A DNA stretch of 64,000 nucleotides from Phoronis australis (lineage: Eukaryota > Animalia > Phoronida), in the NCBI GenBank assembly GCA_002633005.1, contig NMRA01000108.1, positions 539,006-603,005 on the forward strand, in the 5' to 3' direction. This document shows, one piece after another, positions 1,706 to 64,000 of this stretch; the stretch's first letter is position 1, and each line of letters begins with the position of its first letter. The notes under the pieces were generated by a model. The model searched no databases, had not been told where the DNA came from, and worked only from the letters and a program-made list of their open reading frames with translations. Made by a program: the position numbers and the translations under genes.

Positions 1706-1868
1706 GTTCGTGGTGACATTGTTCAAGAAAACGTTACCCAGTGCGTGCTGGAAATGCTGTTGGCGGGAACCGACACATCGTCGGTTACGATGTACTACCT
1801 ATTGGTGTCGTTAGCAGAAAAACCGGAAATTCAAGAGAAGGTTGTGGATGAGATAGCTCGGGTCATAG
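1706..1868 (+). CDS. CYP19: CYP19-like exon (equivalent to CYP19A1 exon 8; I-helix)
   Basis: Pyrimidine tract then GAG acceptor at 1703-1705; 163 nt; phase-1 GT donor at 1869; encodes RGDIVQENVTQCVLEMLLAGTDT...RVIG. Confidence 0.88.
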
Positions 1869-4800
1869 GTAAATGTCGGTCTGACGACTGTCACAAAGGC
1901 TGGGTTATTCCCATTTACTGGATGACCGGCTCACGATAAAGTTTCAATGAATGCCCAACGTTACCTGAGAGTGATAATGAAATATGACACCGCCAAAATT
2001 CCGGGACATATTTTAGTTAAGGTATAATTGCTCATGATCATGGCGTGATGGCATTTCCAGTTTTAAAACGTTTGTTATTGGATATATATTTGAAAACTCA
2101 CGAGTACTCTCGGATAAAATAATGCTGTAAATAAGCTGAACACGTAAGCTATGAATACTTATCTAAACCAATGCTCAAAAAACCGCAGTGTCCGGCGTAA
2201 TGTGACACACTATCATGCACTAACAAGTGCAGGTTTTGAAGTGATAATCGATTAAACTTACCACTTAGCAATGCATATTAGTTTGTGTGGATTTACTCAA
2301 TATGAAAGTGACGTGAAATTCAAGACACAATTCCGGACACTTTTGTGAAAGTTAGTCCAGTAGGCTTATTCTATAAGGAGCAGCCAATGACCACAGGCGC
2401 TTGAGTTTATCTGTTCCTCGGTCGCCACTGACGTCACTCACTACTAAGAATGCATGGTTATGAGTCATCGAGAAATTCGAGCGCCTGTGCCAATGACTAG
2501 GTTTCTGCAACACTTTCGACATTTATGTAACAGATAACTAAATAACCTTTCCATGATTCTCTGCGAGCCTCGGTGTAAAACGTCTGCGACCAGGCACAAA
2601 TGTCTTACGGAAGATGACTGTGGACAGCTAGTGCGTTTTTTTTAGTGACACCTATTTGGTTTCGTATGATACTATTGACCGCCTGCGGTAAAACATTTTG
2701 CACTCCCGATATCAACCGGACAAAGTTGTGCTGTGTAACGAGAATGAACGATTTGTTTAGTGATGAACTTACGGTTTTTTACCAGAAGAGGTTTAATCGA
2801 TCTAACTGTCTATGATCATCTACTATATAAAATGCATCGTTTGCACAAACGCCGTCTACCCCGCTCCACTACGGACCTTCGTTGCGCCCGTTTCGGCACC
2901 GCCTTGGTCCCAGGTATTCCACCAGCCACCTATTTGGATTCGAAGTGTCATATTTTGTCTCGCGGGTCGTTTTTCGCGGATGCGGAGGGAGGGTGGCCAG
3001 TTTTGTACTGGCCTTGATGACGTCAGTTCGTCGGCCTAATGGCTTGGGTGACGTCACTCCCTCCAGCTTCTGTCGCGTATATAATTCATCGGGCCTGTCG
3101 CCGCCAAAAGTAATGATCCCTCATTAAAAAATTATTACACTTCCTTAAGTAAACTAAATTATTTACGCTGGTGTTGGAAAATTGGTGTACTTCAGTTACC
3201 GGTATTTTGCTGCTAAATTTGCGATGCGTTCTTTGGCGCCATTGCGTCACCTATTGGCCAATTTCCATGTTAGTTATTCAAATGAGAAGTTGCGTACATG
3301 TCATAACAATCGCAAGAGGTTTAATTTCATTACAAGTTTTTACTATTGTATTATCAGAGGTTTCATTTCATTACAAGTTTTTACTATTGTATTATCAGAA
3401 AACCCAATTTCAGAAAAAAAAACTCTCGAGAGATATCACATTTTTTTTCGGAAATGGCTCGTACATGTACGTGCGCGTGTAATAAGTATGCACTGTTTTC
3501 AAAACGACCACAGATTTTCCTTTGTTACAAAAGGCGGATAAAAAATACATTTATTAGATTGTATATTTACTTCTATAAACGGCTGTAACGGGCAAGGTGA
3601 ATGTCGGTTCATTCCCAGATTCTGCATGCGCCCATGTAGGTTGTTAACTCTAAATTTCACGACGAGGTGACAAGCTGAGCACCGGGGTTGTGTGAAATTT
3701 CGGTCTTTAACGGAGCTCTACACACAGCTACCTACCTGTATGTTGACGATAGTTTTCATACAGCTAGCTGGCTTTCTACCCGTCAGATTGATGATGCATC
3801 TTTTGTAAATACATAAATATATTTTGTGTACGTATAGATTATGACATGGCGAAGTCGTTATCCGCCGTTATCTAGAGCCCGAGTGGATTGTGGAGAATTA
3901 TCGACCGAGGGGCGTTAGACCGGGGGTGATAATTCTCCAAAATCCACGAGGGCTCTAGAAAAGGGGGATAACGAGTGAGAACATGTAATAATCTAGTTAT
4001 ACCACATACTAAACGAGAAACATTGCAATGAATCGATCTACCTTTCTCGACTCGCCTCGGCTTTGTAACCACTTTCTATGTCCGGGTCGGAGGTCGTAAC
4101 CTTTTAAGGAAAACCGAGCTATTTTTGTCAAATAACGGTTTTACTCAAAACCAATTGGAAATTTAAACAAAATAGAAATGAAGTGAATCTATAAATTAAG
4201 GTTTAGCAACTATAGCTTACTACACATTTTATCACGCCAAGCTTCGACCGGGAAAATATCGTCTGCTAAAGTAGGTTACCACTAGTAACTGACTATAATG
4301 CTCAAGTCAAAGGAACCCGACGACACGATACCCGCATTCAAATTGGAGATCGGTGATTTACAAGTGAGAGAATACGAGATAAAAATTTCATAAAATATCG
4401 TTTTTATGGAAATTATGCGTCATATTTTTCATAGCGCATAAATGTCGGTGCAATGCCCTTTGCTGAACATGCGATTGTTGCGCGTGCTGATTTAAGTATT
4501 CTATTTTCACGTTCGATGACGTCAGCCGCTGAGTGGTGTAGTGGTAAAGTCGGCGACTCGAAACTCTTGACGCCCGGGTTTGAATCCGGCCTCGGTTTCC
4601 CGCATAAATGTTATCTCACAAGTGAGATAACTTTATGGGTTATTACACGGTTGTATCTGCCATTCGAGGCTAATATTGTGGTATAGTATACAGTATTTGA
4701 AATGCATTCTTAGTTTTCACTTTAAAGAATATCTGATTACTATACTTTGTGTTACAGCAGTGTCAAATGTTCTGGGAAGAAATTTGTACTGCCTGGGGAA

Positions 4801-6181
4801 AGAATCCCGCAGCCACACACCTTGCCTACTAAAACCTGACAGTGACTGAAATTCTGCTTGAAGGTTTGAACATGGCCTTTCAAGAAGTATTCCCGTTTCT
4901 TGCAATAAACATTAATGTTCACTCCTAGGAGTATCTACATGTACTTCTCTCGGCATTTCCCTCTAACTGTTACCGGCTAGTTCAATACGGCTAAAATAAA
5001 TCACGTGTCTTAGTAGTTAATTTGTGTTTAGATGTTAAGTTTTTAACTCATGACACTTATGCTTTGCATCGTTTTAGGCGACAGAGACGTAACAAAAGCT
5101 GACACGGTTAAGTTATTGTACATGGAGCAAGCTTTAAAAGAATCCATGCGCATCAAACCCGTAGGTCTAGTCGTGCTAAGGAGAGCTCTCCGAGATGACG
5201 TCATTGAGGGCCACGTGATCCCGGCTAACACAAACATCATCTTGAATCTTGCCCAAATGCATAGGCGAGAAGAACACTTTCCCAATGCCGACGTCTTTGA
5301 TCCCGACCATTTTGCGGACAAGGTGAGATATTTATATATTTCAAAAGGCTTGGTATATATTTTTCCCGGTTGGTTACTGGGACCTTACACGGCAGGGCTT
5401 CACTTGCTCCTCCTAGGGGCACCCCATTAATTCATTAGAAATTTGAGCTCTTCCACTGTATCTTACATTTTCTCAGTACATAAGTACCGGAATCGTTAGC
5501 GTCAACGACTCACAATATCACCAACCCAGATCTAAGTTAACTTTTGTGACGCAGAGCAATCATTGCATTATTGATGACTTTACGGACAGTCATAATACTG
5601 CAGGGAACGCTTAACAATGGACAAGATTGGTACTGTCTAAAATCCTCTCTCGTCTGAAAAACTCACGAAACGGGACCTCTTAGTAATGTGTTGCAGTCGG
5701 TCAAGTGTCGGCCAAAACCTCACTGCACAAGCTCGGCGTGTTAGGGAGAAGTCAGTTTACACCCTGCCTGCCCACCCTAGGCGGAGATTAAAAACGGTCT
5801 GCGTTTAACTTTAACACAAAGTCTTAGCAGATTTCAAAACAGATTTAAGTTATACCTGAACTGTTTTCTCCGCGCATACCTTTGGATTGGTCCGGCTTTT
5901 AGTGACTGCCCAGCTTCTATTTCCAGCAATTCCAAGAGGAATTTCTCCCGTTTGGAACTGGGCCCAAAGGGTGCATCGGACAATTTCTAGCCATGATAGA
6001 AATGAAAGCAATTTTGTGTACTTTGCTCCGAGAGTACAAGGTGAAATCATGTGGTCAGACTATCGCGTCAATGGCAACCAGGTGGGACATCGCTCAGCAA
6101 CCAACCGAGCCAAGCTATTTGTTCCTCGTTCCTCGACGACATTTGGTGGAAATTGGATGCAGTACAAAGCTGTCGAATTAA
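1706..6181 (+). CDS. CYP19: CYP19-family (aromatase-like) cytochrome P450, 3' part (three exons; 5' exons lie upstream of the window)
   Basis: Spliced translation of 1706-1868 + 5078-5322 + 5927-6181: VRGDIVQENVTQCVLEMLLAGTDTSSVTMYYLLVSLAEKPEIQEKVVDEIARVIG/DRDVTKADTVKLLYMEQALKESMRIKPVGLVVLRRALRDDVIEGHVIPANTNIILNLAQMHRREEHFPNADVFDPDHFADK/QFQEEFLPFGTGPKGCIGQFLAMIEMKAILCTLLREYKVKSCGQTIASMATRWDIAQQPTEPSYLFLVPRRHLVEIGCSTKLSN*. P450 I-helix, ExxR (ESMR) and heme motif (FGTGPKGCIG) are present. CYP19-specific strings RGD..ENV.QC.LEML, ESMR..PV, RAL.DDVI.G, TNIILN...MHR and MKAIL.TLLR are present. Introns fall at the CYP19A1 positions. Confidence 0.9.
2392..2489. mobile_element. 98-bp MITE with 8-bp TSD (hAT-like)
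   Basis: TIRs CACAGGCGCTTGAGTTT / AAATTCGAGCGCCTGTG; exact flanking duplication CCAATGAC at 2384-2391 and 2490-2497. Confidence 0.85.
3316..3399. repeat. 41-bp tandem duplication
   Basis: GAGGTTT(A/C)ATTTCATTACAAGTTTTTACTATTGTATTATCA occurs twice. Confidence 0.9.
3835..3995. repeat. Long imperfect hairpin (foldback element)
   Basis: Arms TAGATTATGACATG..CGTTATCC..TCTAGAGCCC..GTGGATT..TGGAGAATTATC and GATAATTCTCCA..AATCCAC..GGGCTCTAGA..GGATAACG..CATGTAATAATCTA. Confidence 0.85.
4528..4640 (+). mobile_element. tRNA-derived (SINE-head-like) sequence followed by a palindrome
   Basis: A-box TGGTGTAGTGG, B-box GGTTTGAATCC, acceptor-like pairing GCTGAG/CTCGGT, broken anticodon stem; then hairpin CATAAATGTTATCTCAC-AA-GTGAGATAACTTTATG. 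Confidence 0.55.
5078..5322 (+). CDS. CYP19: CYP19-like exon (equivalent to exon 9; K-helix ExxR)
   Basis: ttttag acceptor ending 5077; GTGAGA donor at 5323; 245 nt; phases 1 to 0 match the neighbouring exons. Confidence 0.92.
5927..6181 (+). CDS. CYP19: CYP19-like terminal exon (equivalent to exon 10; heme-binding Cys)
   Basis: ttccag acceptor ending 5926; FLPFGTGPKGCIG heme motif; TAA at 6179-6181. Confidence 0.92.
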   Translation, partial: QFQEEFLPFGTGPKGCIGQFLAMIEMKAILCTLLREYKVKSCGQTIASMATRWDIAQQPTEPSYLFLVPRRHLVEIGCSTKLSN

Positions 6182-45372: not shown

Positions 45373-48300
45373 GTAATCGTGTGTTATCATGATCACTAGT
45401 CGATAAGGACACCCTAAAACCTGGTGCTCACATTCCAGAACAATATTCAAAACAATACCTTACGGCCAGGAATTTTAACTACAAAAACCTGCCTGATATT
45501 CCTGATCAGTTTTCGTAAAGCTGCATTTCACATAACCACCTAACCCTGCTAACTGTAGGTGTGTAAGACTTCATGAACATCGAAACACAGCTAGTGAACG
45601 CTGTGGGTAAAAATTTGACACTTTAAGCGAAGCTTGATGACTTATTGCAAGGAGACTTAATCAACATGTAGCATGTCAAACCACTGAGGCACCTTTAATC
45701 AGCCGCTCGTCATGACACTACACTATAGAATGTGTACGAGAGGGATCCAATATGGCCCGTGAGTACTTGCACAAGCGAGTTATTTACCCGTTTGATTAAA
45801 ATTGATGGAACTGTTAAAATACACTTCAAATCTGTTACTTTATGTTCGTTTAGTGAAGACACTCGCAGACAATAAAGACAAATGGAACGATCTGATGTAG
45901 GCAATGTGCCTCAAATTCCACAGCTCGCCGTACTCAGCGATCAAAAGATGCCATGACAGACTAAATAGTTGTGGGTTGAGTGTTTGCTATTAGTGAAGCT
46001 GCAATTGTCTTGGATGAAAGGTTAAAGGTCAATTGAATTCTCATTCCAGTTCAGTCACTCCCTCATAACGTGGACACTTATTCAGTATTTGCAAATAATG
46101 AGTTGGACATGTCGGAAATTGAAGTGTTCGGCTTCGACTACGATTACACGCTCGCCAACTACACCGACAACTTACATTATCTTCTGTATGACTTGGGACG
46201 TGATTATTTAGTCAGCAAATTCAAGGTAAGTCTGTACCTTTTGTTGGTTGTAAGCGCTATGCTTCTGAAACGTAGTCTTTTATTATCACAGTTTGGGTCT
46301 GAAATCCACCATGACCTTGGTGAAAGTCATGTAATATTGAGCTCGTATCATCAAATGAAAAATGGAAACTAGTTTTAATTAATTTTGTAAATTTGTATTT
46401 TTCTTTTCAAGGTTGTCAGAGCTTGTTATGTACCAGCGGTCGTTCTGTGTTTTTGTACGATGAGCCTTTATTGCAGAAAAAAGTTGTTTGAAAATACCCT
46501 ACCCAAGACAACTGAACATGGTTGCCAGACTCCCTCGGTCAGTCGCTGCTATTTTGTTTTGGTATTCTGTTCTATTTATGTGACTTAGTACAGTGGAAGC
46601 CAAAAGTATTCAAGACCAAATGATCTGGAATTTCCCATTATGGTCTTTGGGCAAAAGAGGCATTCATTTGTGAGTGAAGCTGTCTCTCATGACTGAGAAT
46701 GAAAGGGAATTAAAAGGACATGTAGGAAGGTGGATAAACCATTCTGCTGAAGCGTGCTGCTTAATAGTCATTTTTGTTGTGTTAACACAATTAGCCATCA
46801 TGACGTGGAAATGGTATTTTGTCTGATTACTTTTGTAAGAGACTGTACGATTTGCTGGTTATCTTAGAACCCATTTTAATACTAATACTTTTTGCAGTAT
46901 CCAGAAGAAATTGTCGATCTACCTTTTGATCCCAAGTTTTCTGCCAGAGGACTACACTTTGACGTGCAAGAGGTAAGACTGAGAGGACAAATCACCTTTT
47001 TGTTTTATAGGTGACTTGTTTACTTGTAGCTCAGGGGTTTTGAAAGTTAAATGGTTCTTTCGATAAAATTATGCCTCTACTGGAGATGTTTCTTGGTGAG
47101 AAAGTTGCACCAAACAAACAATAATTAATGTAAAGAAAACAAGAAACATGGTTTCTTACCTTTGTCAGAGTTGGAACATTCGTGGGTCTGAGGTAGTAGT
47201 CAGCAGATGGATAATAATAACCTTTATGGGATTCTATAATTTGGATTACGTGATAGCTTTATTGTCTATTGGATGTCATTGACCTTCCAGTTTGTGTATT
47301 GAGTATCTTCGAGAAATGGAAAAAAACAGCAAACCTGTTTGCTTTCACAGTGTACAAACAGTAGCAGGTCTGGAGAACATTATCAGGAAAGACAACTATT
47401 TTGGTGTATGTATAATTTGTACATGCTTTGAATGTGATTTTAAAATGAAACTGCTGTCAGTAATCTAACCATTGTAATAATGTAAATTTGAAGTCTTACA
47501 ATATCACACCAATTCAGTCCCTGCAGGTTGCATATTAGTGGTGCTGGGAGTTTTCAAAACGATATGTTTCACCCTTACAAATGAGAGTTCTGTCAGGGCA
47601 AAAACCCAGGCATAAGCTTTGTGAACTGTGACCTCATCAATTAACTGATGTTCTCTGATTGGTCGTTTCTTCACCATGCTCATTCTGAGCTTATTGACTC
47701 TTTAGTCAATGTGTGACAGAAAAATGAATGTTTTATCAATACACATCGTCTTTTGAATAGGTTTCAGGTAAACCACAAATATTACGCCTATACCGTACCC
47801 TAATGATATTATCTTTGGGTCAAACAAGCTGATGCAGATTTCAGAAACTTTGCTGGGATAATTTTGTGATATTTGACATAGATAACAGCTCCATCTATAC
47901 ATCAACAGCGTAATTGGGGCTTAATCCTTTATAACTTGTAAATCATTGGACAAAGAAACTTTTCATATTCCGTGTACAGAGGTCTACGTTTCTAATGGCA
48001 TAAATTATTGTTAAGTTCAATAGTACTTCTGCAATTACTTTTGGAAAAATGCTAATAAGAATCATTGTTTTGCTGCTTGACCTTGATGGTAATATCTTCC
48101 TGCAACAGATAATTTTGCAGAATATCTAATGATGGCTTTTGAAATAATGTTACGATCGAAATGGATAACAATTAGGTTTTCTTTCCCAGCCTTCTACACT
48201 AGCAGTATGCATGAATTTTCAATTTCGAGCATGGTCTGCGAACATCAGCGTCCAGTGTCTGTTGCATGAAAAGTGACACTTAAGACAGGGCGCTTCACAC

Positions 48301-51300
48301 AACTATTACTGGAAAATAATTAAAGTTCACATGACCAAAAGTGCAAAGTCTCTAAAAATATACGCATAACTGCTAGTTACCGACTGAGGTAATTTCTACA
48401 AATTATTTCTAGACTGTGATGCACTCATAATCATTTTGTCTAATTTAAAATCTTTTTTAAGCAATTATAAAGTGTGAGCATAAGACTACCGGTAATTTTC
48501 TGTCTTAAGTCACTTTCATGAAACGGGCTGCAGGCCTGCATCTTGTGCAGGAGATTGTGGACCTTCTTATGTGCTGACTCGAATCACTCATGGACTCACT
48601 ACTAACTACCAACACCGTGGAACAATATACAGGACACACCTAAAGTATTCAGACAAAAAGACTGGGAATTCCCGTCATGGCGGCTGGGCGGAAGCGGAAT
48701 TCATAGTCTGAGTAGCTTTCCGTAATGACGTAGAGTGAAGGGTACTTAACAGGAAAAATTGACCAGGAGTAAGCCATTCTGCTATTGTAAGTTTGCTGCC
48801 ATAAATGCCATTACCAGGCATTTTTGCTGTTCATAGAATTTGACGTCATGACGAGGAAATTGTATTTTGTCTGCCAGTAGTTTCTCTGCGTAGGATAATG
48901 TGTACCACCATAAGTATAGATAAATAAGTTAGTTTCGGGACTCAATTTTTATTGGTTCATTTCTGGGAAATGGTAATGAATTCTAGAGCAAAATGTGAAC
49001 TCGTGTGTTTTTCAGGGTAATCTTTTGAAGATTGATGCTTTTCACACCATCCAGATGGGTACAGTGTTCAAAGGACTTCATCCTGTCTCTGATAAAGATG
49101 TCCTGGAGACATATAATGGCATACATGTACCACTTGACATTATGAGTGGTTTCCATGGCAAAGTGAGTCTTGCTAAAGCGTAATTGTTGATGTCTCCAAA
49201 ATCAAGATGAATAATTAATCAATAGTCAAATTATTAATTATACATTTTTTCAAGAAATATTGCCAGTGACATCATATACAGACATGTGAATGAATGCATG
49301 ATTATTTGACACATACACATACGCACAAACATAAACGCACATAGACGCGCACACAAACACTCATTTCAAGACCAGACATCAAATTTTAACACTAGATAAT
49401 ATTCAAAGAAACGAAAGAGTCAAAGAGGACCATATTTTACTGAATTTTTCATATTCACAGTTTGAAAGTAATGCAACATCTTTCTAAAAAGTTTAAATGA
49501 ATAAGAAGACAACTGCGATCTCAATAATTTAACGTAAAGCATCTAGCGCAACCTGTCATTATGCGCAAGAACAACGTCAAGAAATGCATACGATGTCATC
49601 AAATAATGGGTATGACATCATCAAACTTTGGGTGTGACATCATCAAACAATGGGGGTGACATCATCAACATTATACCCAGGGTGTGTGCATGGGGTGGTT
49701 GATGAATCCAGTATACTGACTGAGTGTGTTTGTGTGGGGGGGAGGGTTTGAATCCAGTAGTGAGTCTTTTTATTTGCTTTTCTCAGGGTCCACGTATGTA
49801 TCAGCTGATGGATCTCTTTGCCTTGCCTGAAATCACACTGCTGGCAAACGTCACAGAGGTATAGTGTATAACTAATATTAGCATTACCTTGGTGTTTTTT
49901 TCATGATTGAGATGATATATGGTAAGAATTCCTAAATTTTGGTGCTGAAAAATTCACAAAGAAATTTTTCCTAGAAATTATGAGCAAATGAGAAATTTTC
50001 CCATTAAGGTTAATTTGATTTGTTTGTGAAATTTCGGAAATGATTCTGTAAGAAAATGGCTTCTTCTGTAAAAACTGTGCGGGAATTGTTTGTACCCTAA
50101 ATCTTATCACTGACATCGGTTATAGAATTTTTACCATGATAAACAATTTGAAGGCATTCATCAGTAAAGTGCATCTCCCATGACTAAAACTATCTTGTCA
50201 GTGAAATCAGCATAATATGGTCTAATAACCAGAGGTGACCAAATGCACTCAGCGATCAGACAAAAGAATGCTGTGTCACCTGATGATGGACAAAACAATA
50301 AAATGAAGTTGTAATTTAGTGAATTTTGATGGTACTTTTTATTAATTATGTTTTATTGATCTCTGATTACAGTTCTTTGAGAGAAACAGTATCCCATACC
50401 ACCCTGAGAATCTTTTTCGTGACGTCACCACAGCTATTCAGTCTATTCATAAGAATGGTGAACTGCACCAAGCAATTATGAATGACTTGGGTAAGGTTAA
50501 GTAGTATTCTATCCCTTCATTCAAAATTCCACCTTCGCTGACCAATCATTTCAGTGGCCGCCTATTTGCTACGAAAAATGTGCGCTTGTAAGGTACCGAG
50601 TGTACTCGCCAAGAATTCACCTTTCACTCATGTAATTTTGCCTGATCTTGCATGATCAGTATTTCCTCTGTGGGTAAAAATCTGAGCAGCCAGCTACAGT
50701 CCTTTTTGACCCCGCTACTTGTAATCTTGCCCAAATTGACTGCCACACTCCCTAGTCTGACAAGAAAACTTTCACCGCCGAGCAAAAATCTTTAGTAAAA
50801 TTGAATATGCAACAGACAAGTTACTCAGCTACTGTCAATGTTTGTGGATCGAAGGGAAAAACATTTTAAAATCAGATTTTGAACTTTTCCCCTTGTTAAA
50901 AGTAATCATTTTATTCCTTTTTCCTAGCGTTCGCTCAGTGACAAACGATGCACAGTTATTGAATGTAGTCAGGGACCAGGCAATGACCTTGACATTAGTT
51001 TTCTAAAATGGCCAAGCACCAGTGAACACAGATGAAATGGGTGTTTACGATTACAATTAAAGAAGTCGTGCAAAAATGTGATTTTTATTGCAGAGAATAG
51101 TCAACAGTGAATCATAGACCTATCAAGTTATCTTAGTAGTTGTCTGCACTGAATGGATAAATAAATCTTCTGCTAATTAATCCAATTGATTTACATTAAG
51201 CAAGAATATAAACGATCTCATACCAGTTAGTCAATCAGCTCTAAACAGGTTTGATCATGTTTATTGTTTGATGTACTAGTACATGCATAGAGCTGGAGAA

Positions 51301-54300
51301 TTCACTTTTAATGAATGGTCTGAAGCTTGCTGGCATGTCTGCTTCCTATTGCAACTTTAATTGGTGATTAAAATATACTTGAATGATACAAAACTCTTCA
51401 TACTCTGAGATCACTCAATGACACTTCACTGCGGCGTCGGTCTCGGCATCCACTGAGACCATTCACTACCACGCTCTTTTCGAAAATCTAGAGAACACTG
51501 GTGATCTTAGTGTTTTGTGAGTATTTTGCATCTCCCCAACGCACCCCTTAATACTATGTTCAATTTCCACACCTGATAACTTTGTGGGCATTCATTTAGG
51601 GTGTTCTTTCTCCAAACAGCGATGAAGAACTATTTGAATTAACCCGGAGTCGTGTTTCAAATCTTGAGCCGTGTCTGAAAAGCTTCGGCCTTTTCTGGTT
51701 CATGGTGGAAATGTCTTGATTGAAATGGCATTGGATATTGGCAAGTGCCAATTGCTTTTGTGTGGATTGGCAAAAAGAACACGATGCTTAATTTGCATTA
51801 GTAACTCCTCAATAGATTTGTACCAGATGGCGCTGTGACAAGAAGCCGGTTAATCAGGAATGCTGATTTGGGGCCCTTGTGTGAGGAGCAGTGCAATTTT
51901 GTGAGGAGCAATGCAATTACTGCATTGGTCATGATTTCACAGCAATAAAGCACACTGTATAATTTAAAAATAAACTGATTTACCATTATGTGAAACTGTT
52001 GATTGTTCGAACTATTTGGTATCTAAAATTAAACTCCTTGTGAAAAGCTTGGTTAAGGGACTCATTTTTTGCCCGTACAAATGTGATACAGATTAGCCAA
52101 TAATTGCGTTAGGTTTCACTTCTTTGATTCCCAGTGATGAGAATAGCCGAATTTGATTCTAGTTATTTTTTTTAATCACGATGGTAGATAATTGGCCTAC
52201 ACATCGTGATGGCAGACAAAAAACGTAGGATCGCTCAAGAGTTGACTTAGATTTAGTCTCGATTTGTGAACTGTTGTCGTCTGGAGTTGAAACCAAATAG
52301 GAGGTTTTTGTAATTGAGCCATGCTTGTAGTTTTGCCTTTTGAGAACACCAATAATGTGCACAGAAAGTTCTTTGTGAAGCGTTGATTTATAACTGACTG
52401 CCATAACAAACTGTTTCAACACTTTTTGATGTATAGATGATGTACGATATGTGTTTGATAATTGCATGATTCAATCTTAAATTGTTAGCATTATGCACAA
52501 TGATTTTTGCTGATTGGCCCATCAGCTGATTGCTATCCCACAATTCCTCCATCTTTTTGATTGACAGTTCATGCTGCGTGAAAGATGTGCCAAATTGGCT
52601 ATTGATTTTTTAAAGAAATGTCAATAGGCTGTCACCATCATGGAATTCTTGATATAAAGGTTTTGAGTAGGTGGCGATATTTTTGCCATGGTTCCATGCA
52701 GCGCACCACTCCATTTGTCATTGATCACTTACTTCATCCAGATGTGTCGTACGGCAGCTTTACAAGAAATGTGAAATTCCATAAATCGTAACAAGTCTGG
52801 ATTACGTATGAGATTCATTGCGAGAAACATCAATGGTGAAATCTCACCTATTTAGGACACAATATGGCTGACAATTGTATTTTTTCTCATGTTTTTGTGT
52901 GAAAGATATGCGGCACCAAATTAATGCCTTCCTGTGTACCGTTCAAAGTCTGTACCAGGCAATGTTTTGAAAAATACTGTGCGTTCACAACAAAGTAATT
53001 ATGAAGACGTTGGAAAATGGGAACGGCATTTTTAGCAATATTTTTTGTCTGAAATTGATGGCCTTTTACCATATTGGATGTTGAGCAATGAAACATTGAT
53101 TTTGGCTCAGTACCAACAGTGGGTATTAAATCTTTTTTTCCATTAAATGTATAATTAATAATGGAACTGTCTATCACACACACACACACACAGCTGGCCT
53201 CAGTCTGTTATAATAGGTATCAGGCTGTGGTGGTACTATACTAGAGCAATAATACAATTTGCTGCCAATTTGACTCCTGTGGATATCTCGTGAGAAAAGC
53301 ACAGCACGCATTACCAACACAGTTGTTGTTGGTTAGCTTCATAGGCTGTCTATATTAATATTCTTTCCATGTTAGCATTTTTAATAAAGGTTCTAGATGT
53401 TTCCGTTTAGCATTACCTCAATTCTATGTTCCTTTGTATTTATTATGTATTTATGAGTATACGTAGTGGCATACGGTGTATGTATTATGTATGTTACCTT
53501 ATGTATTACTGTATATATTATGTATGTCACCTTATGTATTACTGTATATATTATGTACGTCAACTTATTTATTACTCTATATATTATGTATGTCACCTTA
53601 TGTATTACTGTATATATTATGTACGTCACCTTATGTATTACTGTATATTCCTTAGTTATTACTTGAGTCTGCTCCATGTTGGCTTTGTACTCATCTTAAT
53701 TTTACGTTACTCTCATTTTGTCCCCTTGTTGTGTCTTGTATATATTTTTATATTGTCATGTTAACCAGCTGTTCCACTCCATGTTAGCATTTTTCGTATA
53801 GTCATAGCTACTGTTACTCTATTTCACTCAATGCCTCACTCACTCTCCCTTGAATGGGCGGATGCATCCTTCTGCTGCACATGTGGCAGATTGTCACCCA
53901 CCTTTGTATCTCAACATATTGTTAATATAACTTTTGTAGTTATCGATATCTGTAGTAGTTTAGTTTGTCATAATATGTATGACCTTTTATGTCATCCAAA
54001 TGAGTTGTTTCACTGTAAACTAGCTCTGGTATCGCTTAGCAGTTAGTGCATGTAAGGTCTGATACTTTGTTTCATAAGATTAACACTGTTTTTAGTTTTG
54101 GTTTGGGACTTATTATGACTTATCACTTAATTTGGTTTAGTGTCTAAGTGTGGCTTAGTGACTAAGTGTGGCTTAGTGACTAAGTGTGGCTTAGTGACTT
54201 AAGTGTGGCTTAGTGACTAAGTGTGACTTGTTTACTTAGCAGCCATAATGTTCTCCTTTCTAGAGACCTATCTTTGCAAAGAAGATGGCCAGATGATTGG

Positions 54301-57300
54301 GAAATTATTGAAAAAACTCTCAGATGCTGGAAAGAAGCTCTTCCTTATTACAAACAGTGGCTATCCTTTTGTGTAAGTGATTGATGTAGTCTAACTCGGC
54401 GTGATTAACACGATTATTGCAGCATTGCGGACTATACATTGCTTTCACACCTCTTCTAGTTTGGTTACCTTTTACATGATTTACCGTAGATCAGATCCAG
54501 AATTTGGCAAAATCATTCTCAGCCATTTTGACACTCATCAGTAAGTGTTTCTGGAATTTAGAGAATGCGAAATTTACTTATTTGATAAATGCGTTTAGAA
54601 TACGTCACCCTTGGTATTTTCCAAAGGTAATATAAAGCGTCTCATAATGGTTGTCTGTAGTGGCCAATTAAATGTTTGTGACTTGCTTAGAACAGAAAAA
54701 ATTTGTTTGAAGGAATAAGGGAATGAGCTTCATGGTTGGTGAGGATTGGAAAGATCTATTTGATGTCATCGTAGTCTCCGCAATGAAACCCCAGTTCTTC
54801 ACTGAATCTTCCAGNCAGCCATAATGTTCTCCTTTCTAGAGACCTATCTTTGCAAAGAAGATGGCCAGATGATTGGGAAATTATTGAAAAAACTCTCAGA
54901 TGCTGGAAAGAAGCTCTTCCTTATTACAAACAGTGGCTATCCTTTTGTGTAAGTGATTGATGTAGTCTAACTCGGCGTGATTAACACGATTATTGCAGCA
55001 TTGCGGACTATACATTGCTTTCACACCTCTTCTAGTTTGGTTACCTTTTACATGATTTACCGTAGATCAGATCCAGAATTTGGCAAAATCATTCTCAGCC
55101 ATTTTGACACTCATCAGTAAGTGTTTCCGGAATTTAGAGAATGCGAAATTTACTTATTTGATAAATGCGTTTAGAATACGACACCCTTGGTATTTCCCAA
55201 AGGTAATATAAAGCAACTCATAATGGTTGTCTGTAGTGGCCAATTAAATGCTTGTGACTTGCTTAGAACAGAAAAAGTTTGTTTGAAGGAATAAGGGAAT
55301 GAGCTTCATGGTTGGTGAGGATTGGAAAGATCTATTTGATGTCATCGTAGTCTCCGCAATGAAACCCCAGTTCTTCACTGAATCTTCCAGGTAGGTTGCA
55401 TGCTAAGTCAAGACTTCAGCCCTCGAGCTCAAAACTTTTCCTGAGGCTATACTGAAAATTGACCAATCACGTCACGTGAAATATAAAATGGTTCAAATGT
55501 GTTTCTCAATTGCTAACTGTGATTTGGTTCTGAGTAGTTGGGATTTGAGTAGCACTAACCAGATACGTTTTTAGTTTTATAACCATCATCTTTTTTGGGG
55601 GGTAGGGGGTGACTTGGGAACAGAGATGACTCATTACGTCATTATGGCATTCTCCTGTTGGGTCTAACTTGCTCGGTTGTGTAGCATAACAAGTTGGGTG
55701 GATGACTGCTGTACCCAATATCTTGCATGACTGATAAGTCCATTCTGGCAGTCATGGTTGGACGGTCAGCTCTCTTATGTTCAATAATTGATCTAATCTT
55801 CGATAAGATCCTATCTAGCCTGACTGGGCTGTGCCGTGAAAAATAAAATTTCTGTTTTAAAATGTTTGAACATAAGTCAATAACATTATTTTCTGGATTC
55901 CTCGTCAAATGCTGATTTTGTTAAGTTTTTGAATCACCAAAACCGCCTAACTACAACCAATCTATTCTTACCGAACGTACCAACGCACTGGGTTTGACTG
56001 TGTTCCCACATGGTCTGTAATAAGTCTTGTACTGGCCTTCCTGTTGCCACAGGAGACAAAAGACTTTGCTGGGCAGTTAACAAAGGAGCTAGATGTTATC
56101 ACTTCCTGACATCCACTCTGTGTCTGGTAAAGTCACTGAACTGGAGAATGCCCTAATGTGGTAACACTAACATTGTCTGCATTCTTTACATATTAATAGA
56201 CTGGTTTGCATTGTGCACATGTGATAGCACAATTAGAATAGTTATCCTAACTAAATACCTCTAGAGAATTTGGAGTTATTTGAATAGAGGTTCGTCTTAC
56301 ATTTTGAACCATGTCATGTGATATGTTGATATATTTAAAAGTTTTAGTAAAAAGTGATGAACTTAGGTCCTGGTGCTCAGATTCAATGCACCTAAAGTTG
56401 TCTAAAATTGGCTACTTGAACTTCTGAACTGTGTATCTGATGCAACAGTCACTGTTGTGGCTTTTTGGATTTGAGGCCCTAGAGAAAATAATTTTTAGTG
56501 ATGTTCTTAATTTGTCTATTCCCTTATTTTTTGGACTCCATTCTTGCAACTACTGATAACGATGTTGAGGGACAGCCTACTTTTTGAAGCGTTGAATGTT
56601 TTGGGCTGTGCCTCGTCATGAAGTCTTCACAAGATAAAAGAGCGGTAAAACGTATAATATTGTTGTTGATCTTTCAGGTGCATTTTGTTCTGTCACACCC
56701 AGAGGTCATATTAAAGTTTTATTTCAGACCATTCAGAATGTATAGTGAAGAGATTGATTCTTTATCGTATGACCGCGTGCGGACTTTAAAGAAAGACAGT
56801 GTTTATAGAGAGGTACGTCTTCCAACGGTTGTTAGCTGGTTTTCCTGCCATCTGAAAATCTACTTTTTGATGTAGTTTAAAAAATACATAGCGCTCTTAT
56901 TAAGAGACATTGGCCAATACTACTACATGCATGTAAATCTTTGCAGCGATCGTAGGAGACTCGGTACTTGCTAGGTGGTCTTGGTAAAAGACGAAGCTTC
57001 TTTTTATTTTATCTGATTAAAGTATGATTAGAAAACTGTTCACCAGCATAGGGTTTTTGGGATAAGTGTCCCACATGTACCTCAGCATGTGCATTTATTC
57101 AGGTAGGCAGTAGTTTTAACAGTGCCACCTAGTGGACTTTGAGCTTCTTATCAGGTTGTCAAAAGTTCCACTTTGGAGTGGAGAATACATTTAGATTTAG
57201 CTATGGAACCCATCTTTTATCATAAGTGTAATAGACTGGTTATACCATAGTTTGAAGCAAGGATCCAATAAACAATTGGGTCCTAGTTTGAAGTAACTCA

Positions 57301-60300
57301 AAATGTGCTCCAAAAGTTTTTAAAATGTCATGTAGTGTTAGACTTTCACTGGGTAAACATGTTGAGTATTTTAAGCAAATCTCTTCATTAGTGGATTGCG
57401 TATGACATCTCTTGTTTCCTGGATGTGATATATTAGTATGCTATTGTTACAGGGAAATATCAACGAGTTCCAAAGACTGACTTCATGGTATGGGAACAAA
57501 GTTCTATATTTTGGAGACCACGTCTACAGTGATCTAGCTGTAAGTTTGTATCAATTGTCAAGAGCATAAAGGACCAAAAGTGGGCTGGTAAATTGTAGCT
57601 ATGACTATCATGTCATTGTGTTGTATAGGCACACTGTTCATCAAAGATCTTAACGAAGATGGTCATTACATGAGGATACAGACAAATAGTTAAATTAGTG
57701 TTTGTTGCAGTGTTTTGTTCATATAAATATGCTACATCAGGACGGTATAGTGGGTGTTTGGAAGCCAGGAACTGTAAAAACAGTGCATTATTTTACTATT
57801 TATGAATTAAGTAGAAACAACACATATATCTCTCCATCCCTTTCAATGTTAGACAATATCTTAAGATGTTGGGAAGTTTTCATTGGGTGGAAGCACCTTG
57901 CTGGCGGTAAACAAAATGTTTTCCTGAAACTTGAATGTCAGAAAAATGGGTAAATTTACAATTTTTACTGGACCTGAGTTTGCCAAATAGGATGGTTGAA
58001 TTTCAAAACTAAATTCCCAATTTTTCATGTTATAGATTGAAATGAATCATATTCTTTGATTCAGATACAAAAAATACCCGAAGCCACATGTCTGCTTTTC
58101 TAACAATAGTCATGGAAAATTGAATGGAGGTGATGAAAATGTTTCAATTATTTTATGTGTTTTTATTTTACATTTATCGTTCTCACCAAATTGGTTTCGT
58201 AATTTTAATTATATCCACTACATTTAAGAGTGTATTAACTTGAATTAGATGAAAAAAATTTCGATTGACTGTTTGTCTTTGTTGACAGATGCCACCCCCT
58301 GTTGGCCAGCTGTCTCAAGAACTTGCCAAAAGTTTACCTGTCAATAATTTATACAGTATCCGCGACATAAACTGGGTTACTGTTGTGTTTTCATGTTTCA
58401 TACAGTTTAATTTTGTTAAGTGCTATGTTCTTTTGATAACAGGTTTTATTTCTCTGTGTTCAATTGTGAACTTTTATTAGACATATTGGCCTGTCTAATC
58501 AGAAACTAACTCAGCTGCTTTAAACTACGTAGTATTCACAATTAAGGCATCCTGTTGCCCAACTTATGACTAATTAGCATAAAATTAATATTCCGGCCAT
58601 TCGTGTGCGATAGTCATGAACAATCAGAGCCCAACCCCAAGTTCGCCATTGAAATGCAGGCTTTTGACAGTTACAACTAAGGCAAATATTTTGTCTGAGG
58701 AGCATTCATAAGTGAATTTATTTTAGATCTTAGACCAGGCGTCTAATCTTTCATCCAATCATATGGTATGTGAAAGCTAATGTTGATTTGCATTTCGTAC
58801 TGAATTACAATAAGATTGGTACAAAAACGATCAATGTTTTAATGTAGCTTTAGCCATAATATGTAAACCCATTTGCTACAGTCTGTTTGAGTCATTTCCT
58901 GTAAGTACCTTTTAGTATGCCACTAGAGACCCCCTATTTGTGTTTATAGGATGCAACTCTTCGCCATGGCTGGAGGACTGGGGCAATAATACCTGAATTG
59001 GAGGTAAGGTTTCCAAAAATTCGAAAATAGCTTATAATGATGAAATTTTCTTTTTCCATTTTCCAAAAGCTCAGGTTACCTTGTGATGGCTGTCGATGGC
59101 AGAGCATTGCCAACTGTGGTAATAATGAAGTAAATAATTTTCTGTTTATTTTTGTCTGAGAAACATGGCAGCTGAAGTAAAATATCACTGTTCCACCATA
59201 TCTAGTTAGCTTTTATGTAACTATGTGATAAACTTTGAAAAATTAAAATTGTGTCAAAATCATATGTTCAGTCATCTAAAAGAAATGAATTTTAGATATT
59301 CTCCTGACGTTGTGGTCAATTCAGCAGCTCAAAATTCCAAGTCCTGTTCAATCTTAAATTTCCTGAAAATATCCTCCACAGACAGAAATATCATCTACTG
59401 ATTCCCAATCTACAAAAATATGGAGCCAGCTTATATTTTTATATAAAAATAATTTTCTACGCAATCATTTAAAAATGTGCCCACTTACTTTAAGTTGAGC
59501 CGAAATTTCTGGTGTCAACAAGTTCTGAGTATTAACTAACTTTTTTGACGATTATTTACTAATTATTACTTGGTGTTTTTAATGATTAAGTTAATAAGCC
59601 ATTCTAACTTTGGCTGCGTCTTTATCTGTCATCTCCGAGCAAAAGTCAATATCATATAACTTCCTTATGTCATCTTTTTGTTGATGTTTCTCTCGTCTCA
59701 TTTTAGGACGAGTTTCAATTGTGTTATCTCTTTGTTGTCATGTCTTGCATCTCATTATAGGATGATATCTTAGAGAAGTTCCTAATGTCTTTTCTTTGTT
59801 GTATGAATCTTGGATGTCATTTTAACATGAACTACTGAAATTCCTATGTCAAGTCTTTGCTATTGACAGTGTCTTATATCTCGTTTTGAGCAAGTTACCA
59901 ATCAGGTGATATTTATTGTACTACTTTGGGATGGAATCCTAGAGATGTTCTTAGAATTCTATGTCATCTTTTCATTGACATATTTTGCATCTCATTTTAG
60001 GATGAGATCCAAGTTCTCAACAGTGACCAGTACAAGTCAAGCGTAATGTGGTTGGTCATGCTTCAGGATCTGATCGAAAAATCTCAAGTTTACAACGATG
60101 AAGAATCTCGAGAGGTCATCAGCCAGTGGTTGGCAGAGAGGAACGAGTTAAGGCAAGTTCTGTTAAAGTCGCATACACAGCGCATCCTTGCAAACTGTTT
60201 TTTAATGTCTGGAATATAGTTAAAGTTTTATTTAACATACTACTAAGATAGTTTTTTAACTTTTCACAATTTAAATGTGAATTGAATGGAGTTCACTGAA

Positions 60301-60992
60301 TCCAGTCTAAGTTTGTCTACAATCATTATGTAGGTTGAAGTTCAGCACTGCACCTTCTCTTGTTTATGAACACAATCTACTAAGATTTTGTCGAAGCTTT
60401 TATTCAGTCACCAGAAGACAAAAGTTGTTTCTGGTTAAAAACGTTCATCGTTGTCTCCTGTGATGATAGTAAAAACGTTACTTATACTAGGAGACATTTA
60501 GATAGTTGAGCATAACGTTTTTGCGGGGCATGACGGAGCTGCAAGCTTGAAATGATATGCTCAACTAACTATATGTCTCCTAGTAAGTAACTTCTCTCGT
60601 TTTTACCATGTTCTATCCTAAAATTTCTATTACCAAAGCCTTTGTCAAAATGTTCTCATTTTTGTTTACAGAGCTGTAATGTTTTATAAATTAGTGCACA
60701 ATCTATTTAGTTAAAACAGTCAAGTAAATAAAAATGTATAAAGCCAATTTTTTAATAAAATTTTATCTCCTGTAGGCAAATAACCAAGAAAGTTTTCAAC
60801 AAGCAGTTTGGCAGTGTATTCAGGACGTACCACAACCCGTCTTACTTCACCCGTCGTCTCTGTCGCTTTGCCGACATCTACACCTCGTCCATAGTCAACT
60901 TGCTCAACTACCAACTAACTCACACGTTCTACCCTAGGAGGGCAGCACTGCCTCATGAGATGAATTATTCAGTTGTTTTGCCAACATCCTAG
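45204..60992 (+). CDS. NT5DC3: 5'-nucleotidase domain-containing protein (NT5DC2/NT5DC3 family, HAD superfamily), 13 exons, ~520 aa
   Basis: Exons 45204-45372, 46050-46225, 46898-46972, 49016-49162, 49787-49858, 50373-50490, 54264-54372, 55289-55390, 56728-56812, 57453-57539, 58950-59003, 60001-60152 and 60776-60992 join in frame (1563 nt). HAD motifs [17 protein letters not shown] and [10 protein letters not shown]; family strings [43 protein letters not shown] and HTFYPRR. Likely a single invertebrate pro-ortholog of NT5DC2/3. Confidence 0.95.
46050..46225 (+). CDS. NT5DC3: NT5DC exon 2
   Basis: [23 protein letters not shown]; ccag acceptor, GTAAGT donor. Confidence 0.92.
46591..46845. mobile_element. 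Tc1/mariner-type MITE with TA TSD, copy 1
   Basis: TA-CAGT.....CAAAAGTATTCAAGAC ... GTCTGATTACTTTTG.....ACTG-TA; collinear with 48630-48902. Confidence 0.75.
46898..46972 (+). CDS. NT5DC3: NT5DC exon 3
   Basis: [25 protein letters not shown]; tgcag / GTAAGA. Confidence 0.92.
48253..48530. mobile_element. MITE
   Basis: Inverted ends GTTGCATGAAAAGTGACACTTAAGACAG / CTGTCTTAAGTCACTTTCATGAAACGGGCTG. Confidence 0.7.
48630..48902. mobile_element. Tc1/mariner-type MITE, copy 2 (more decayed)
   Basis: Shares AAAGTATTCA.AC, GGAATT.CC, CCATTCTGCT and TCATGACG.GGAAAT.GTATTTTGTCTG with 46591-46845. Confidence 0.65.
49016..49162 (+). CDS. NT5DC3: NT5DC exon 4
   Basis: [20 protein letters not shown]...FHGK; ttcag / GTGAGT. 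Confidence 0.92.
49592..49670. repeat. ~23-bp minisatellite, ~3.5 units
   Basis: TGACATCATCAAAC(A/T)(A/T)TGGG.G repeated. Confidence 0.85.
49787..49858 (+). CDS. NT5DC3: NT5DC exon 5
   Basis: [24 protein letters not shown]; ctcag / GTATAG. Confidence 0.92.
50373..50490 (+). CDS. NT5DC3: NT5DC exon 6
   Basis: [39 protein letters not shown]; tacag / GTAAGG. Confidence 0.92.
53482..53648. repeat. 33-bp AT-rich minisatellite, ~5 units
   Basis: TATTATGTA(T/C)GT(C/T)ACCTTATGTATTACTGTATA repeated; explains the periodic ORFs. Confidence 0.95.
54127..54230. repeat. 18-bp minisatellite, ~5 units
   Basis: TAAGTGTGGCTTAGTGAC repeated. Confidence 0.95.
54264..54372 (+). CDS. NT5DC3: NT5DC exon 7 (first copy)
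   Basis: [37 protein letters not shown]; tctag / GTAAGT. Confidence 0.85.
54713..54814 (+). CDS. NT5DC3: NT5DC exon 8 (first copy; donor replaced by N at 54815)
   Basis: [33 protein letters not shown]. Confidence 0.6.
54840..54948 (+). CDS. NT5DC3: NT5DC exon 7 (second copy)
   Basis: Reads identical to 54264-54372. Confidence 0.6.
55289..55390 (+). CDS. NT5DC3: NT5DC exon 8 (second copy, intact donor)
   Basis: Reads identical to 54713-54814; tgaag acceptor, GTAGGT donor. Confidence 0.85.
56728..56812 (+). CDS. NT5DC3: NT5DC exon 9
   Basis: [29 protein letters not shown]; ttcag / GTACGT. Confidence 0.9.
57453..57539 (+). CDS. NT5DC3: NT5DC exon 10
   Basis: [29 protein letters not shown]; tacag / GTAAGT. 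Confidence 0.93.
58950..59003 (+). CDS. NT5DC3: NT5DC exon 11
   Basis: [18 protein letters not shown]; tatag / GTAAGG. Confidence 0.93.
59665..60015. repeat. Degenerate ~55-60-bp tandem array built on the exon 12 splice acceptor
   Basis: Units TATGTCATCTTT..TTG...TCTCATTTTAG|GA(C/T)GA; AG at 59705-59706 and 59759-59760, and the true acceptor at 59999-60000. Confidence 0.75.
60001..60152 (+). CDS. NT5DC3: NT5DC exon 12 (GC donor)
   Basis: [51 protein letters not shown]; tttag acceptor, AG|GCAAGT donor. Confidence 0.88.
60468..60606. repeat. Hairpin / foldback in the last NT5DC intron
   Basis: GTTACTT..ACTAGGAGACAT.TAG.TAGTTGAGCATA versus TATGCTCAACTA.CTA.ATGTCTCCTAGTAAGTAAC; outer GTAAAAACG / CGTTTTTAC. 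Confidence 0.85.
60776..60992 (+). CDS. NT5DC3: NT5DC exon 13 (terminal)
   Basis: [61 protein letters not shown]...PTS*; TAG at 60990-60992. Confidence 0.93.
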
Positions 60993-63507: not shown

Positions 63508-63644
63508 TTACATGGCATTTTGAAAGAAGTCCACTAGAGTTGGCAGGTCATAGTTGTCCAGACATTCCAGCAACACAGGCACTTTGCTCTTGACATTTTG
63601 ACCTTTAAACTTGAACTTGTCAATAAATAGGTCAGTGATCATAC
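63508..63644 (-). CDS. Probable terminal coding exon of an unidentified convergent gene extending beyond the window
   Basis: Minus-strand acceptor ttcaactttttcccag (AG at 63646-63645), then [45 protein letters not shown]; protein-like composition; minus-strand AATAAA at 62480-62475. Family not recognised. Confidence 0.6.
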
Positions 63645-64000
63645 CTGGGAAAAAGTTGAATGAAGAAATATTATAATTACCGTGAACTGCAAAACGGTGA
63701 ATTTCACAAACGCTGACTACTGTCTTATTTAATGGCAACTGTAAATAAGGAATGCAAGGCAAAAATGTTCGACTTGCTAGGAAATGTTTTAAAAGTATGA
63801 TGCATAGTTTCGAATTGCAGTGGTACCCAACAAAAATCTTTTACAAACTGAGGTTATTAAAACTGGACATAGTGTGCAGTCACTTAGTCAGGTTTTTACC
63901 TCAACTGGAACAGAGAACATTGCAACTACAAAAGCATTCCAACACTATCTAATCAAATTAATTCTCAATGCAATTTACATGTGCAATTTCCATACATTAC

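Follow-up and report, generated by a model that had tools for sequence, protein, structure and literature searches.

A phoronid P450 gene of the CYP19 clan has threonine in place of the aromatase I-helix proline

In aromatase, P308 shifts helix I by 3.5 Å, which allows D309 to reach the substrate's 3-keto oxygen (PMC7696276), and this contact positions C19 of the substrate and aids enolisation (PMC9366932). The D309N variant forms less 19-OH product and less oestrone (PMC9366932, Table 1). All 365 aromatases compared in PMC7827799, two of them from Branchiostoma, have P308, and P308, V370, M374, L477, F134, and R435 are near-invariant in that set. Because inhibition of the human P308F variant could still be assayed (PMC7063143), loss of the proline alone does not abolish aromatisation. 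Two Cyp19 genes are known from amphioxus, with a biochemistry described as needing confirmation (PMC3184775), and the pair has been worded as an amphioxus-specific duplication (PMC3184775, PMC11047327). One of them, cyp19-like1 (Branchiostoma floridae XP_035672840) of Wang et al. 2024 (PMC11047327), clusters with proteins from a hydroid and a crinoid, has been termed more primitive, and is expressed most highly in gill without a difference between the sexes; a Hydractinia protein is listed with this kind in Table S1 of the same paper. The text sections of PMC11047327 make no mention of an activity test for like1 or of a Pro/Thr difference, which its alignment figure would show. CYP19 has been reported as lacking outside the chordates and in four cnidarians (PMC13666137, PMC8110760).

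In a 64,000-nucleotide stretch of the Phoronis australis genome, referred to here as the window, we found the three final exons of a P450 gene that is transcribed and spliced and that falls in the Thr-type (cyp19-like1) branch of the CYP19 clan. Judged from its protein sequence, the gene almost certainly belongs to the CYP19 clan family. The following features were identified.

1706..1868, plus strand: third-last coding exon, 163 nt, encoding the end of helix H, helix I, and helix J; starts in phase 0 and ends in phase 1
1763..1777, plus strand: I-helix motif AGTDT, corresponding to human A306-T310, with the Thr codon (P308 equivalent) at 1769-1771
1869..5077, plus strand: intron, GT..AG, rich in dispersed repeats, marked by loose ends of RNA reads
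5078..5322, plus strand: second-last exon, 245 nt, with ExxR at 5140-5151, SRS-5, and the meander; Pfam p450 E 1.5e-22
5158..5181, plus strand: SRS-5, PVGLVVLR, placed by alignment to human aromatase
5323..5926, plus strand: intron, GT..AG; joint 5320-5925 (cut +2) in a contig of run X5 and five reads of run X6
5927..6181, plus strand: last coding exon, stop at 6179-6181; Pfam p450 E 7.4e-14
5966-5968 and 5972-5974, plus strand: heme motif in the last exon, with Lys at human R435 and the Cys
6083-6109, plus strand: SRS-6, WDIAQQPTE, in the last exon

Spliced together, the three exons encode 220 amino acids with a single terminal stop, and each scores above the Pfam p450 cut-off of 22.8 bits (50.6, 80.5, and 51.8 bits; E 1.7e-13 for the exon at 1706..1868, which is flanked by AG and GT). 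The best match among PDB chains for each exon was human aromatase, with an E value of 3.9e-12 for the I-helix exon (phmmer; next family 1.7e-5) and 4.5e-16 for the second-last exon. The acid-alcohol pair D309/T310 of the I-helix, the ExxR motif, and the heme Cys, which are hallmarks of the P450 superfamily, are all intact. The N-terminal ~285 residues are encoded upstream of the window, and the states at F134, R115, R192, and W224 are inferred from relatives. Four RNA runs (X5-X8) carry the same species label as the window. Read depth at the I-helix exon was restricted to 1703-1869, with loose read ends on both sides; where these extend past 1869, in runs X5 and X7, their sequence is that of the window at 5079 onward, which defines the intron 1869..5077, and some multi-locus reads fit this intron in part. 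The junction from the second-last to the last exon was found in X5 and X6. Depth was low on the I-helix exon (about six reads in X6, about seven in X7, and none in X8), and the first mate of every read on it lies on the minus strand, which is the pattern that most stranded libraries give for a transcript from the plus strand. An assembly error or a pseudogene was ruled out by the spliced reads and the open frame. The acceptor of the I-helix exon is GAG at 1703-1705, which is uncommon, and 1706 is the sole start after an AG that fits the reads. At position 1822, five of seven X6 reads and two of five X7 reads have T in place of A (Lys to Asn), which is most likely an allele; RNA variants at 1762, 1801, and 1813 are silent.

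The exon borders are presumably those of human CYP19A1 exons 8-10, with introns at the same three places. A search of metagenomes retrieved 32 loci, and the 12 intron-bearing ones examined have the exon borders of the window; the borders of the I-helix exon agree in 6/6 loci examined, as do those of the following exon in the six examined. Intron-bearing Thr-type genes with a window-like exon layout were seen on the metagenome contigs of L012, L013, L015-L023, L025, and L027-L032.

The sequence-only reading of this DNA had reported that the P308 equivalent is missing from the I-helix, and both the translation and an ungapped alignment of the exon to residues 286-340 of human aromatase confirm this. 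The alignment retains E302, A306, D309, and T310 and replaces A307 with Gly and P308 with Thr. The X5 contig, about six X6 reads, and seven X7 reads over 1763-1777 agree, with no other letters listed, which rules out an assembly error as the source of the Thr codon. The roles that the reading gave for P308 (a kink in helix I) and D309 (enolisation) are likewise borne out by PMC7827799, PMC9366932, and PMC7696276. The generic P450 I-helix consensus is [A/G]GX[D/E]T[T/S] (PMC4229089), and among the unrelated P450s returned by our second search, AGTDT ranked second in frequency, with 12 occurrences. The motif by itself is thus generic and is informative only since the gene belongs to clan 19; D309 and T310 are present as in aromatase, and this pair too is generic to P450s. 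Of the two changed residues that the reading had named, Thr at 308 is distinctive, whereas Gly at 307 is not, as amphioxus like2 reads AGPDT. The aromatase-branch gene of amphioxus has AGPDT and not AGTDT, so that the condition which the reading had set for its own refutation, AGTDT in a proven aromatase such as that of amphioxus, does not hold. The absence of the proline is not peculiar to the window gene: within the CYP19 clan, a whole second branch lacks it.

That second branch includes the cyp19-like1 proteins. Amphioxus cyp19-like1 and the proteins labelled 'aromatase-like' from Antedon, Anneissia, and Corticium have the I-helix AGTDTSS as in the window, together with Gly at V370, the heme motif GPKGC, and WDIA in SRS-6. 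They lie in the same tree neighbourhood and are, over the visible part, 59-61% (like1 and crinoids) or 52% (Corticium) identical to the window protein. The window protein differs from this kind in reading PVGL instead of PVGP and in keeping Glu at E483, and it is 60% identical to like1, whereas the Branchiostoma like1 proteins are 93% alike. Proteins of the CYP19A type (human 3EQM, hagfish, and amphioxus like2 ADU57448/ABA47317) share E302, A306, D309, T310, V369, R375, C437, and E483 with the window but differ from it by P308T, M311S, F317Y, V370G, M374L, R435K, L477I, and S478A. The heme motif of the window is FGTGPKGC, as opposed to the aromatase consensus FGFGPRxC with R435. The features of the Pro branch, that is of aromatase, that the window lacks are Pro308, the androgen-pocket residues V370, M374, and L477 (here Gly, Leu, and Ile), and R435.

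To establish the range of the Thr-type branch, relatives were collected in several searches. The I-helix exon alone gave six matches, all with AGTDT, which include two crinoids, amphioxus XP_035672840, and a chytrid. A profile search gave 60 proteins, from sources such as a sponge, bdelloid and monogonont rotifers, Glomeromycota, a chytrid, and diatoms; 56 of these have AGTDT, one each has AGVDT, AGIDT, or ASADT, one lacks the motif, and none has Pro. The second search added members from amoebozoans, Mesostigma, chlorophytes, and Digyalum, as well as the Pro-bearing proteins of amphioxus (like2, AGPDT), hagfish, fish, and pig. Among 67 aligned relatives, Pro occupies position 308 in 10/10 rows of the aromatase branch, a set made up mostly of fish, and in 0/57 others, 50 of which have Thr. 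Over ~205 columns, the window protein is 59-64% identical to amphioxus like1, the crinoids, and P0002, which are its nearest relatives by both identity and tree, and 35-43% identical to amphioxus like2, hagfish, fish, and pig. The naming rule for the CYP19 family is at least 40% identity to CYP19A (PMC4229089), a value that the 35-43% straddles over the C-terminal 205 columns only. The P450s of the rotifers, Glomeromycota, chytrid, diatoms, chlorophytes, Mesostigma, amoebozoans, and Digyalum have the I-helix, SRS-5, heme, and SRS-6 signatures of the window at 41-51% identity (four rows scored). NCBIfam and the ESM Atlas returned generic P450 matches only, with an aromatase cluster as the top Atlas match. 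Pattern scans, which are weak evidence, confirmed 0/19 stretches from prokaryote genomes and 0/39 from viral contigs as relatives. We found no paper on the fungal, algal, and rotifer clan-19 proteins in a literature search whose scope excluded most subscription papers and nomenclature lists, and which is therefore weak evidence of novelty; the cyp19-like1 type itself is already described, and what this search did not return is its range across eukaryotes and the small set of pocket changes given below.

Many of the protist and fungal members carry an AAA_28 domain, and the window gene has none at its C-terminus. Such fusions of clan-19-like P450s to AAA_28 (NadR kinase-like) were seen in fungi, chlorophytes, amoebae, and others (P0005, P0010, P0033-P0041, P0049, P0114, P0156, P0166, and P0179), with the domain C-terminal in most and N-terminal in P0166. 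They are a clue to the pathway of the family, and a sterol role does not explain them. The Brachionus copy P0057 groups with Glomeromycota (support 98-99) and the bdelloid copies P0018-P0031 stand apart from the other animal copies, placements for which transfer or contamination is possible.

We then compared the two branches position by position, with human numbering taken from an alignment of like1 to 3EQM and pocket positions taken from Table 1 of PMC7827799 plus P308. Among the 412 columns scored, both branches are fixed for the same residue in 36 and for different residues in seven (F134W, P308T, F317Y, V370G, R435K, L477I, and S478A). The window protein has the Thr-type residue at all six of the diagnostic positions that it covers (T308, Y317, G370, K435, I477, and A478), W134 being outside the window. 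Diagnostic positions make up 5/18 pocket columns and 2/394 other columns. P308 was chosen by the finding itself, and S478 is not diagnostic, since many functional aromatases of tetrapods have Ala there (PMC7827799, Table 1); with both dropped, the counts are 3/16 and 2/394 (p 0.0005), and the enrichment has a p-value of 0.08 if only doubly fixed columns are considered. R435K is not absolute, since several metagenome loci read GPRGC in the heme motif, with the aromatase-type Arg. Conservation within the Thr branch is 0.85 in the pocket versus 0.45 in the rest, and R115, I133, R192, F221, and W224 are common to the Thr-branch relatives and aromatase. P308 is thus one among several pocket changes. 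Close relatives of the window have Trp at F134, a substitution that fills the pocket and does not open it. SRS-5 of the window has Gly at human V370, Leu at D371, and Leu at M374. The Leu at D371 (PVGL, 5167-5169) contrasts with Pro in 56/56 other Thr-type proteins with a residue there; its codon is one base from Pro, rare departures from PVGP also occur in L006, L014, and L017, and it may be a real change, an allele, or an assembly error. As a stand-in for the partial window protein, the AlphaFold model of amphioxus like1 (pLDDT 90.5) was compared with solved structures and matched aromatase 3eqm best (rmsd 1.7 Å), a predicted fit that may echo the solved aromatase structure.

Phylogenetic trees were used to place the gene and to assess the direction of the change. 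A FastTree of 89 rows puts the clan-19-like proteins, with one exception, in a single clade with the window and aromatase (support 100), apart from 20 other P450 domains. Trees of 14 rows, which left out six rows of a 20-row set (four long branches and two near-duplicates), were calculated under LG+G4 and a mixture model after the five motif columns had been dropped. Like2, hagfish, fish, and pig form a clade under both models (100/99), and the window lies outside this Pro branch in every tree. Under the mixture model, the Pro branch nests with the window, P0002, the crinoids, and like1 (90/94), and the sponge is outside. Forcing the Thr-type animal rows into one clade without the Pro branch gave p-AU 0.20 under LG+G4 and 0.017 under the mixture model, so nesting of the Pro branch among these rows is favoured but model-dependent. 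The window as sister to the aromatase branch was not rejected (p-AU 0.19 and 0.26), and the best tree would make the window gene a pro-orthologue of like1 and like2 alike (support 64/35). The grouping of like1 with like2 (P0004 and P0062) as an amphioxus-only duplication, the wording of PMC3184775 and PMC11047327, was rejected under both models in AU tests on the 14 rows (p 6e-5 and 7e-4). One state change is enough to explain Pro on the tree, and other P450 clans have no Pro there; Thr at 308 is therefore ancestral, and Pro is derived and arose once. The sequence truly between both states is that of amphioxus like2, in which G307 occurs with P308.

These results support in part the proposal of the sequence-only reading that the gene encodes a pre-aromatase CYP19 with another substrate: such an ancestry is reasonable, as Thr is ancestral and the gene ranks with the aromatase branch's nearest relatives, but a halfway enzyme is not supported. 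With the ancestral residue at 6/6 diagnostic sites, the same pocket from diatoms and fungi to amphioxus, and both genes kept in amphioxus, an evolutionary intermediate finds no support.

The explanation that we prefer, with odds that we put slightly better than even, is that this is a Thr-type gene with a likely ancestral pocket whose product would oxidise a non-androgen, probably sterol-type substrate. That the product is not an efficient androgen aromatase is a considerably firmer expectation from its residues. The enzyme would be an ordinary membrane-anchored (microsomal), reductase-fed monooxygenase; as helix I would not be shifted by P308, it would use D309 for oxygen activation alone and would not bind a 3-keto group with it. 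Gly at V370, Pro or Leu at D371, a variable residue at M374, Ile at L477, and Trp at F134 (the last as seen in relatives) would give the androstenedione-binding part of the pocket another shape. Lacking the shift of helix I and with SRS-5 and SRS-6 rebuilt, the enzyme would hold androgens poorly, and another compound with a steroid nucleus, for example a side-chain-bearing sterol, would fit. Conservation of the rest of the pocket suggests a related steroid-nucleus substrate, and a Thr-type pocket frozen across eukaryotes points to a long-stable function; a sterol is probably the substrate in view of the pocket likeness and of sterols being common to the carriers. A duplicate of a Thr-type gene would have become aromatase, by the time of the chordate ancestor, via a handful of pocket changes. 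A bolder version, which we hold as speculative and improbable, is that aromatase did not arise de novo in chordates but branched off late from an unstudied clan-19 family found across eukaryotes, that the Thr-type members of this family, the window gene among them, act at C19 or on ring A of sterols that bear a side chain (the 'paraestrol' chemistry put forward by Markov et al. 2017), and that about five pocket changes (F134, P308, V370, L477, and, on the heme side, R435) gave the androgen aromatase from one duplicate.

The substrate could instead be a non-steroid small molecule, such as a fatty acid, an aromatic, or a nucleoside-type metabolite, with the likeness to aromatase due to descent only. 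The recurrent AAA_28 fusions in fungi, chlorophytes, amoebae, and others and the patchy occurrence across eukaryotes would fit such a role, as would a smaller cavity suggested by Trp at F134 and the gill peak of like1 with the sexes alike (PMC11047327). Most steroid-lining residues of aromatase are nevertheless conserved across the Thr branch, and recruitment to androgens would be easiest from a steroid-shaped substrate, and we regard a non-steroid substrate as unlikely. Somewhat more doubtful is a true aromatase, which would strip C19 from androgens or from 3-keto-sterols with a side chain and aromatise their ring A, with P308 only tuning efficiency. The window has equivalents of E302, D309, T310, and E483, and relatives have that of R192. 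To our knowledge, however, androgens are not expected in diatoms and fungi, where the family is conserved. A retained, assayable activity of P308F (PMC7063143) agrees with a true aromatase, and aromatisation has been reported in cnidarians, molluscs, and echinoderms, along with an aromatised C27 sterol in coral (PMC5375646, PMC7838161). The reported aromatisation does not track a clan 19 gene, however, as four surveyed cnidarian genomes are without one (PMC8110760), and five of the six positions near-invariant in 365 aromatases (PMC7827799) differ in the window.

An intermediate that 19-hydroxylates androgens and cannot finish aromatisation appears very unlikely. In the tree, the gene is a neighbour of the aromatase branch, and the geometry of P308-D309 is linked with enolisation and with the 3-keto contact; both points would suit such an enzyme. 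Against it, the window has the aromatase state at 0/6 visible diagnostic sites and its pocket is common to fungi and diatoms. As the same contact positions the substrate for the attack on C19 itself and D309N lowers both 19-OH product and oestrone (PMC9366932), its loss would not selectively spare the first step, and the suggestion in the sequence-only reading of 19-hydroxylase activity alone finds no support.

With nearly all of the aromatase pocket in place, the little-studied Thr-type sister family would offer both an ancestral form and a few substitutions for testing, and the two forms could be compared directly in amphioxus, which has both. The residue alone is ordinary; it is the family context that makes the origin of aromatase testable. 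The 'aromatase' labels that databases attach to Thr-type proteins are unproven.

Two other genes were noted in the window. A multi-exon gene for a 5'-nucleotidase domain-containing protein (NT5DC3-like) occupies 46037-60989 on the plus strand, and its last exon is 73-78% identical to proteins from a brittle star, a brachiopod, and a crinoid and to one further protein. Two of the NT5DC exons and their intron are tandemly doubled at 54241-55390 with a single N between the copies at 54815, and the tandem copy is probably a scaffolding artefact. On the minus strand, 63511-63840 contains an exon that matches the BBS7 hairpin domain (E 2.2e-16).
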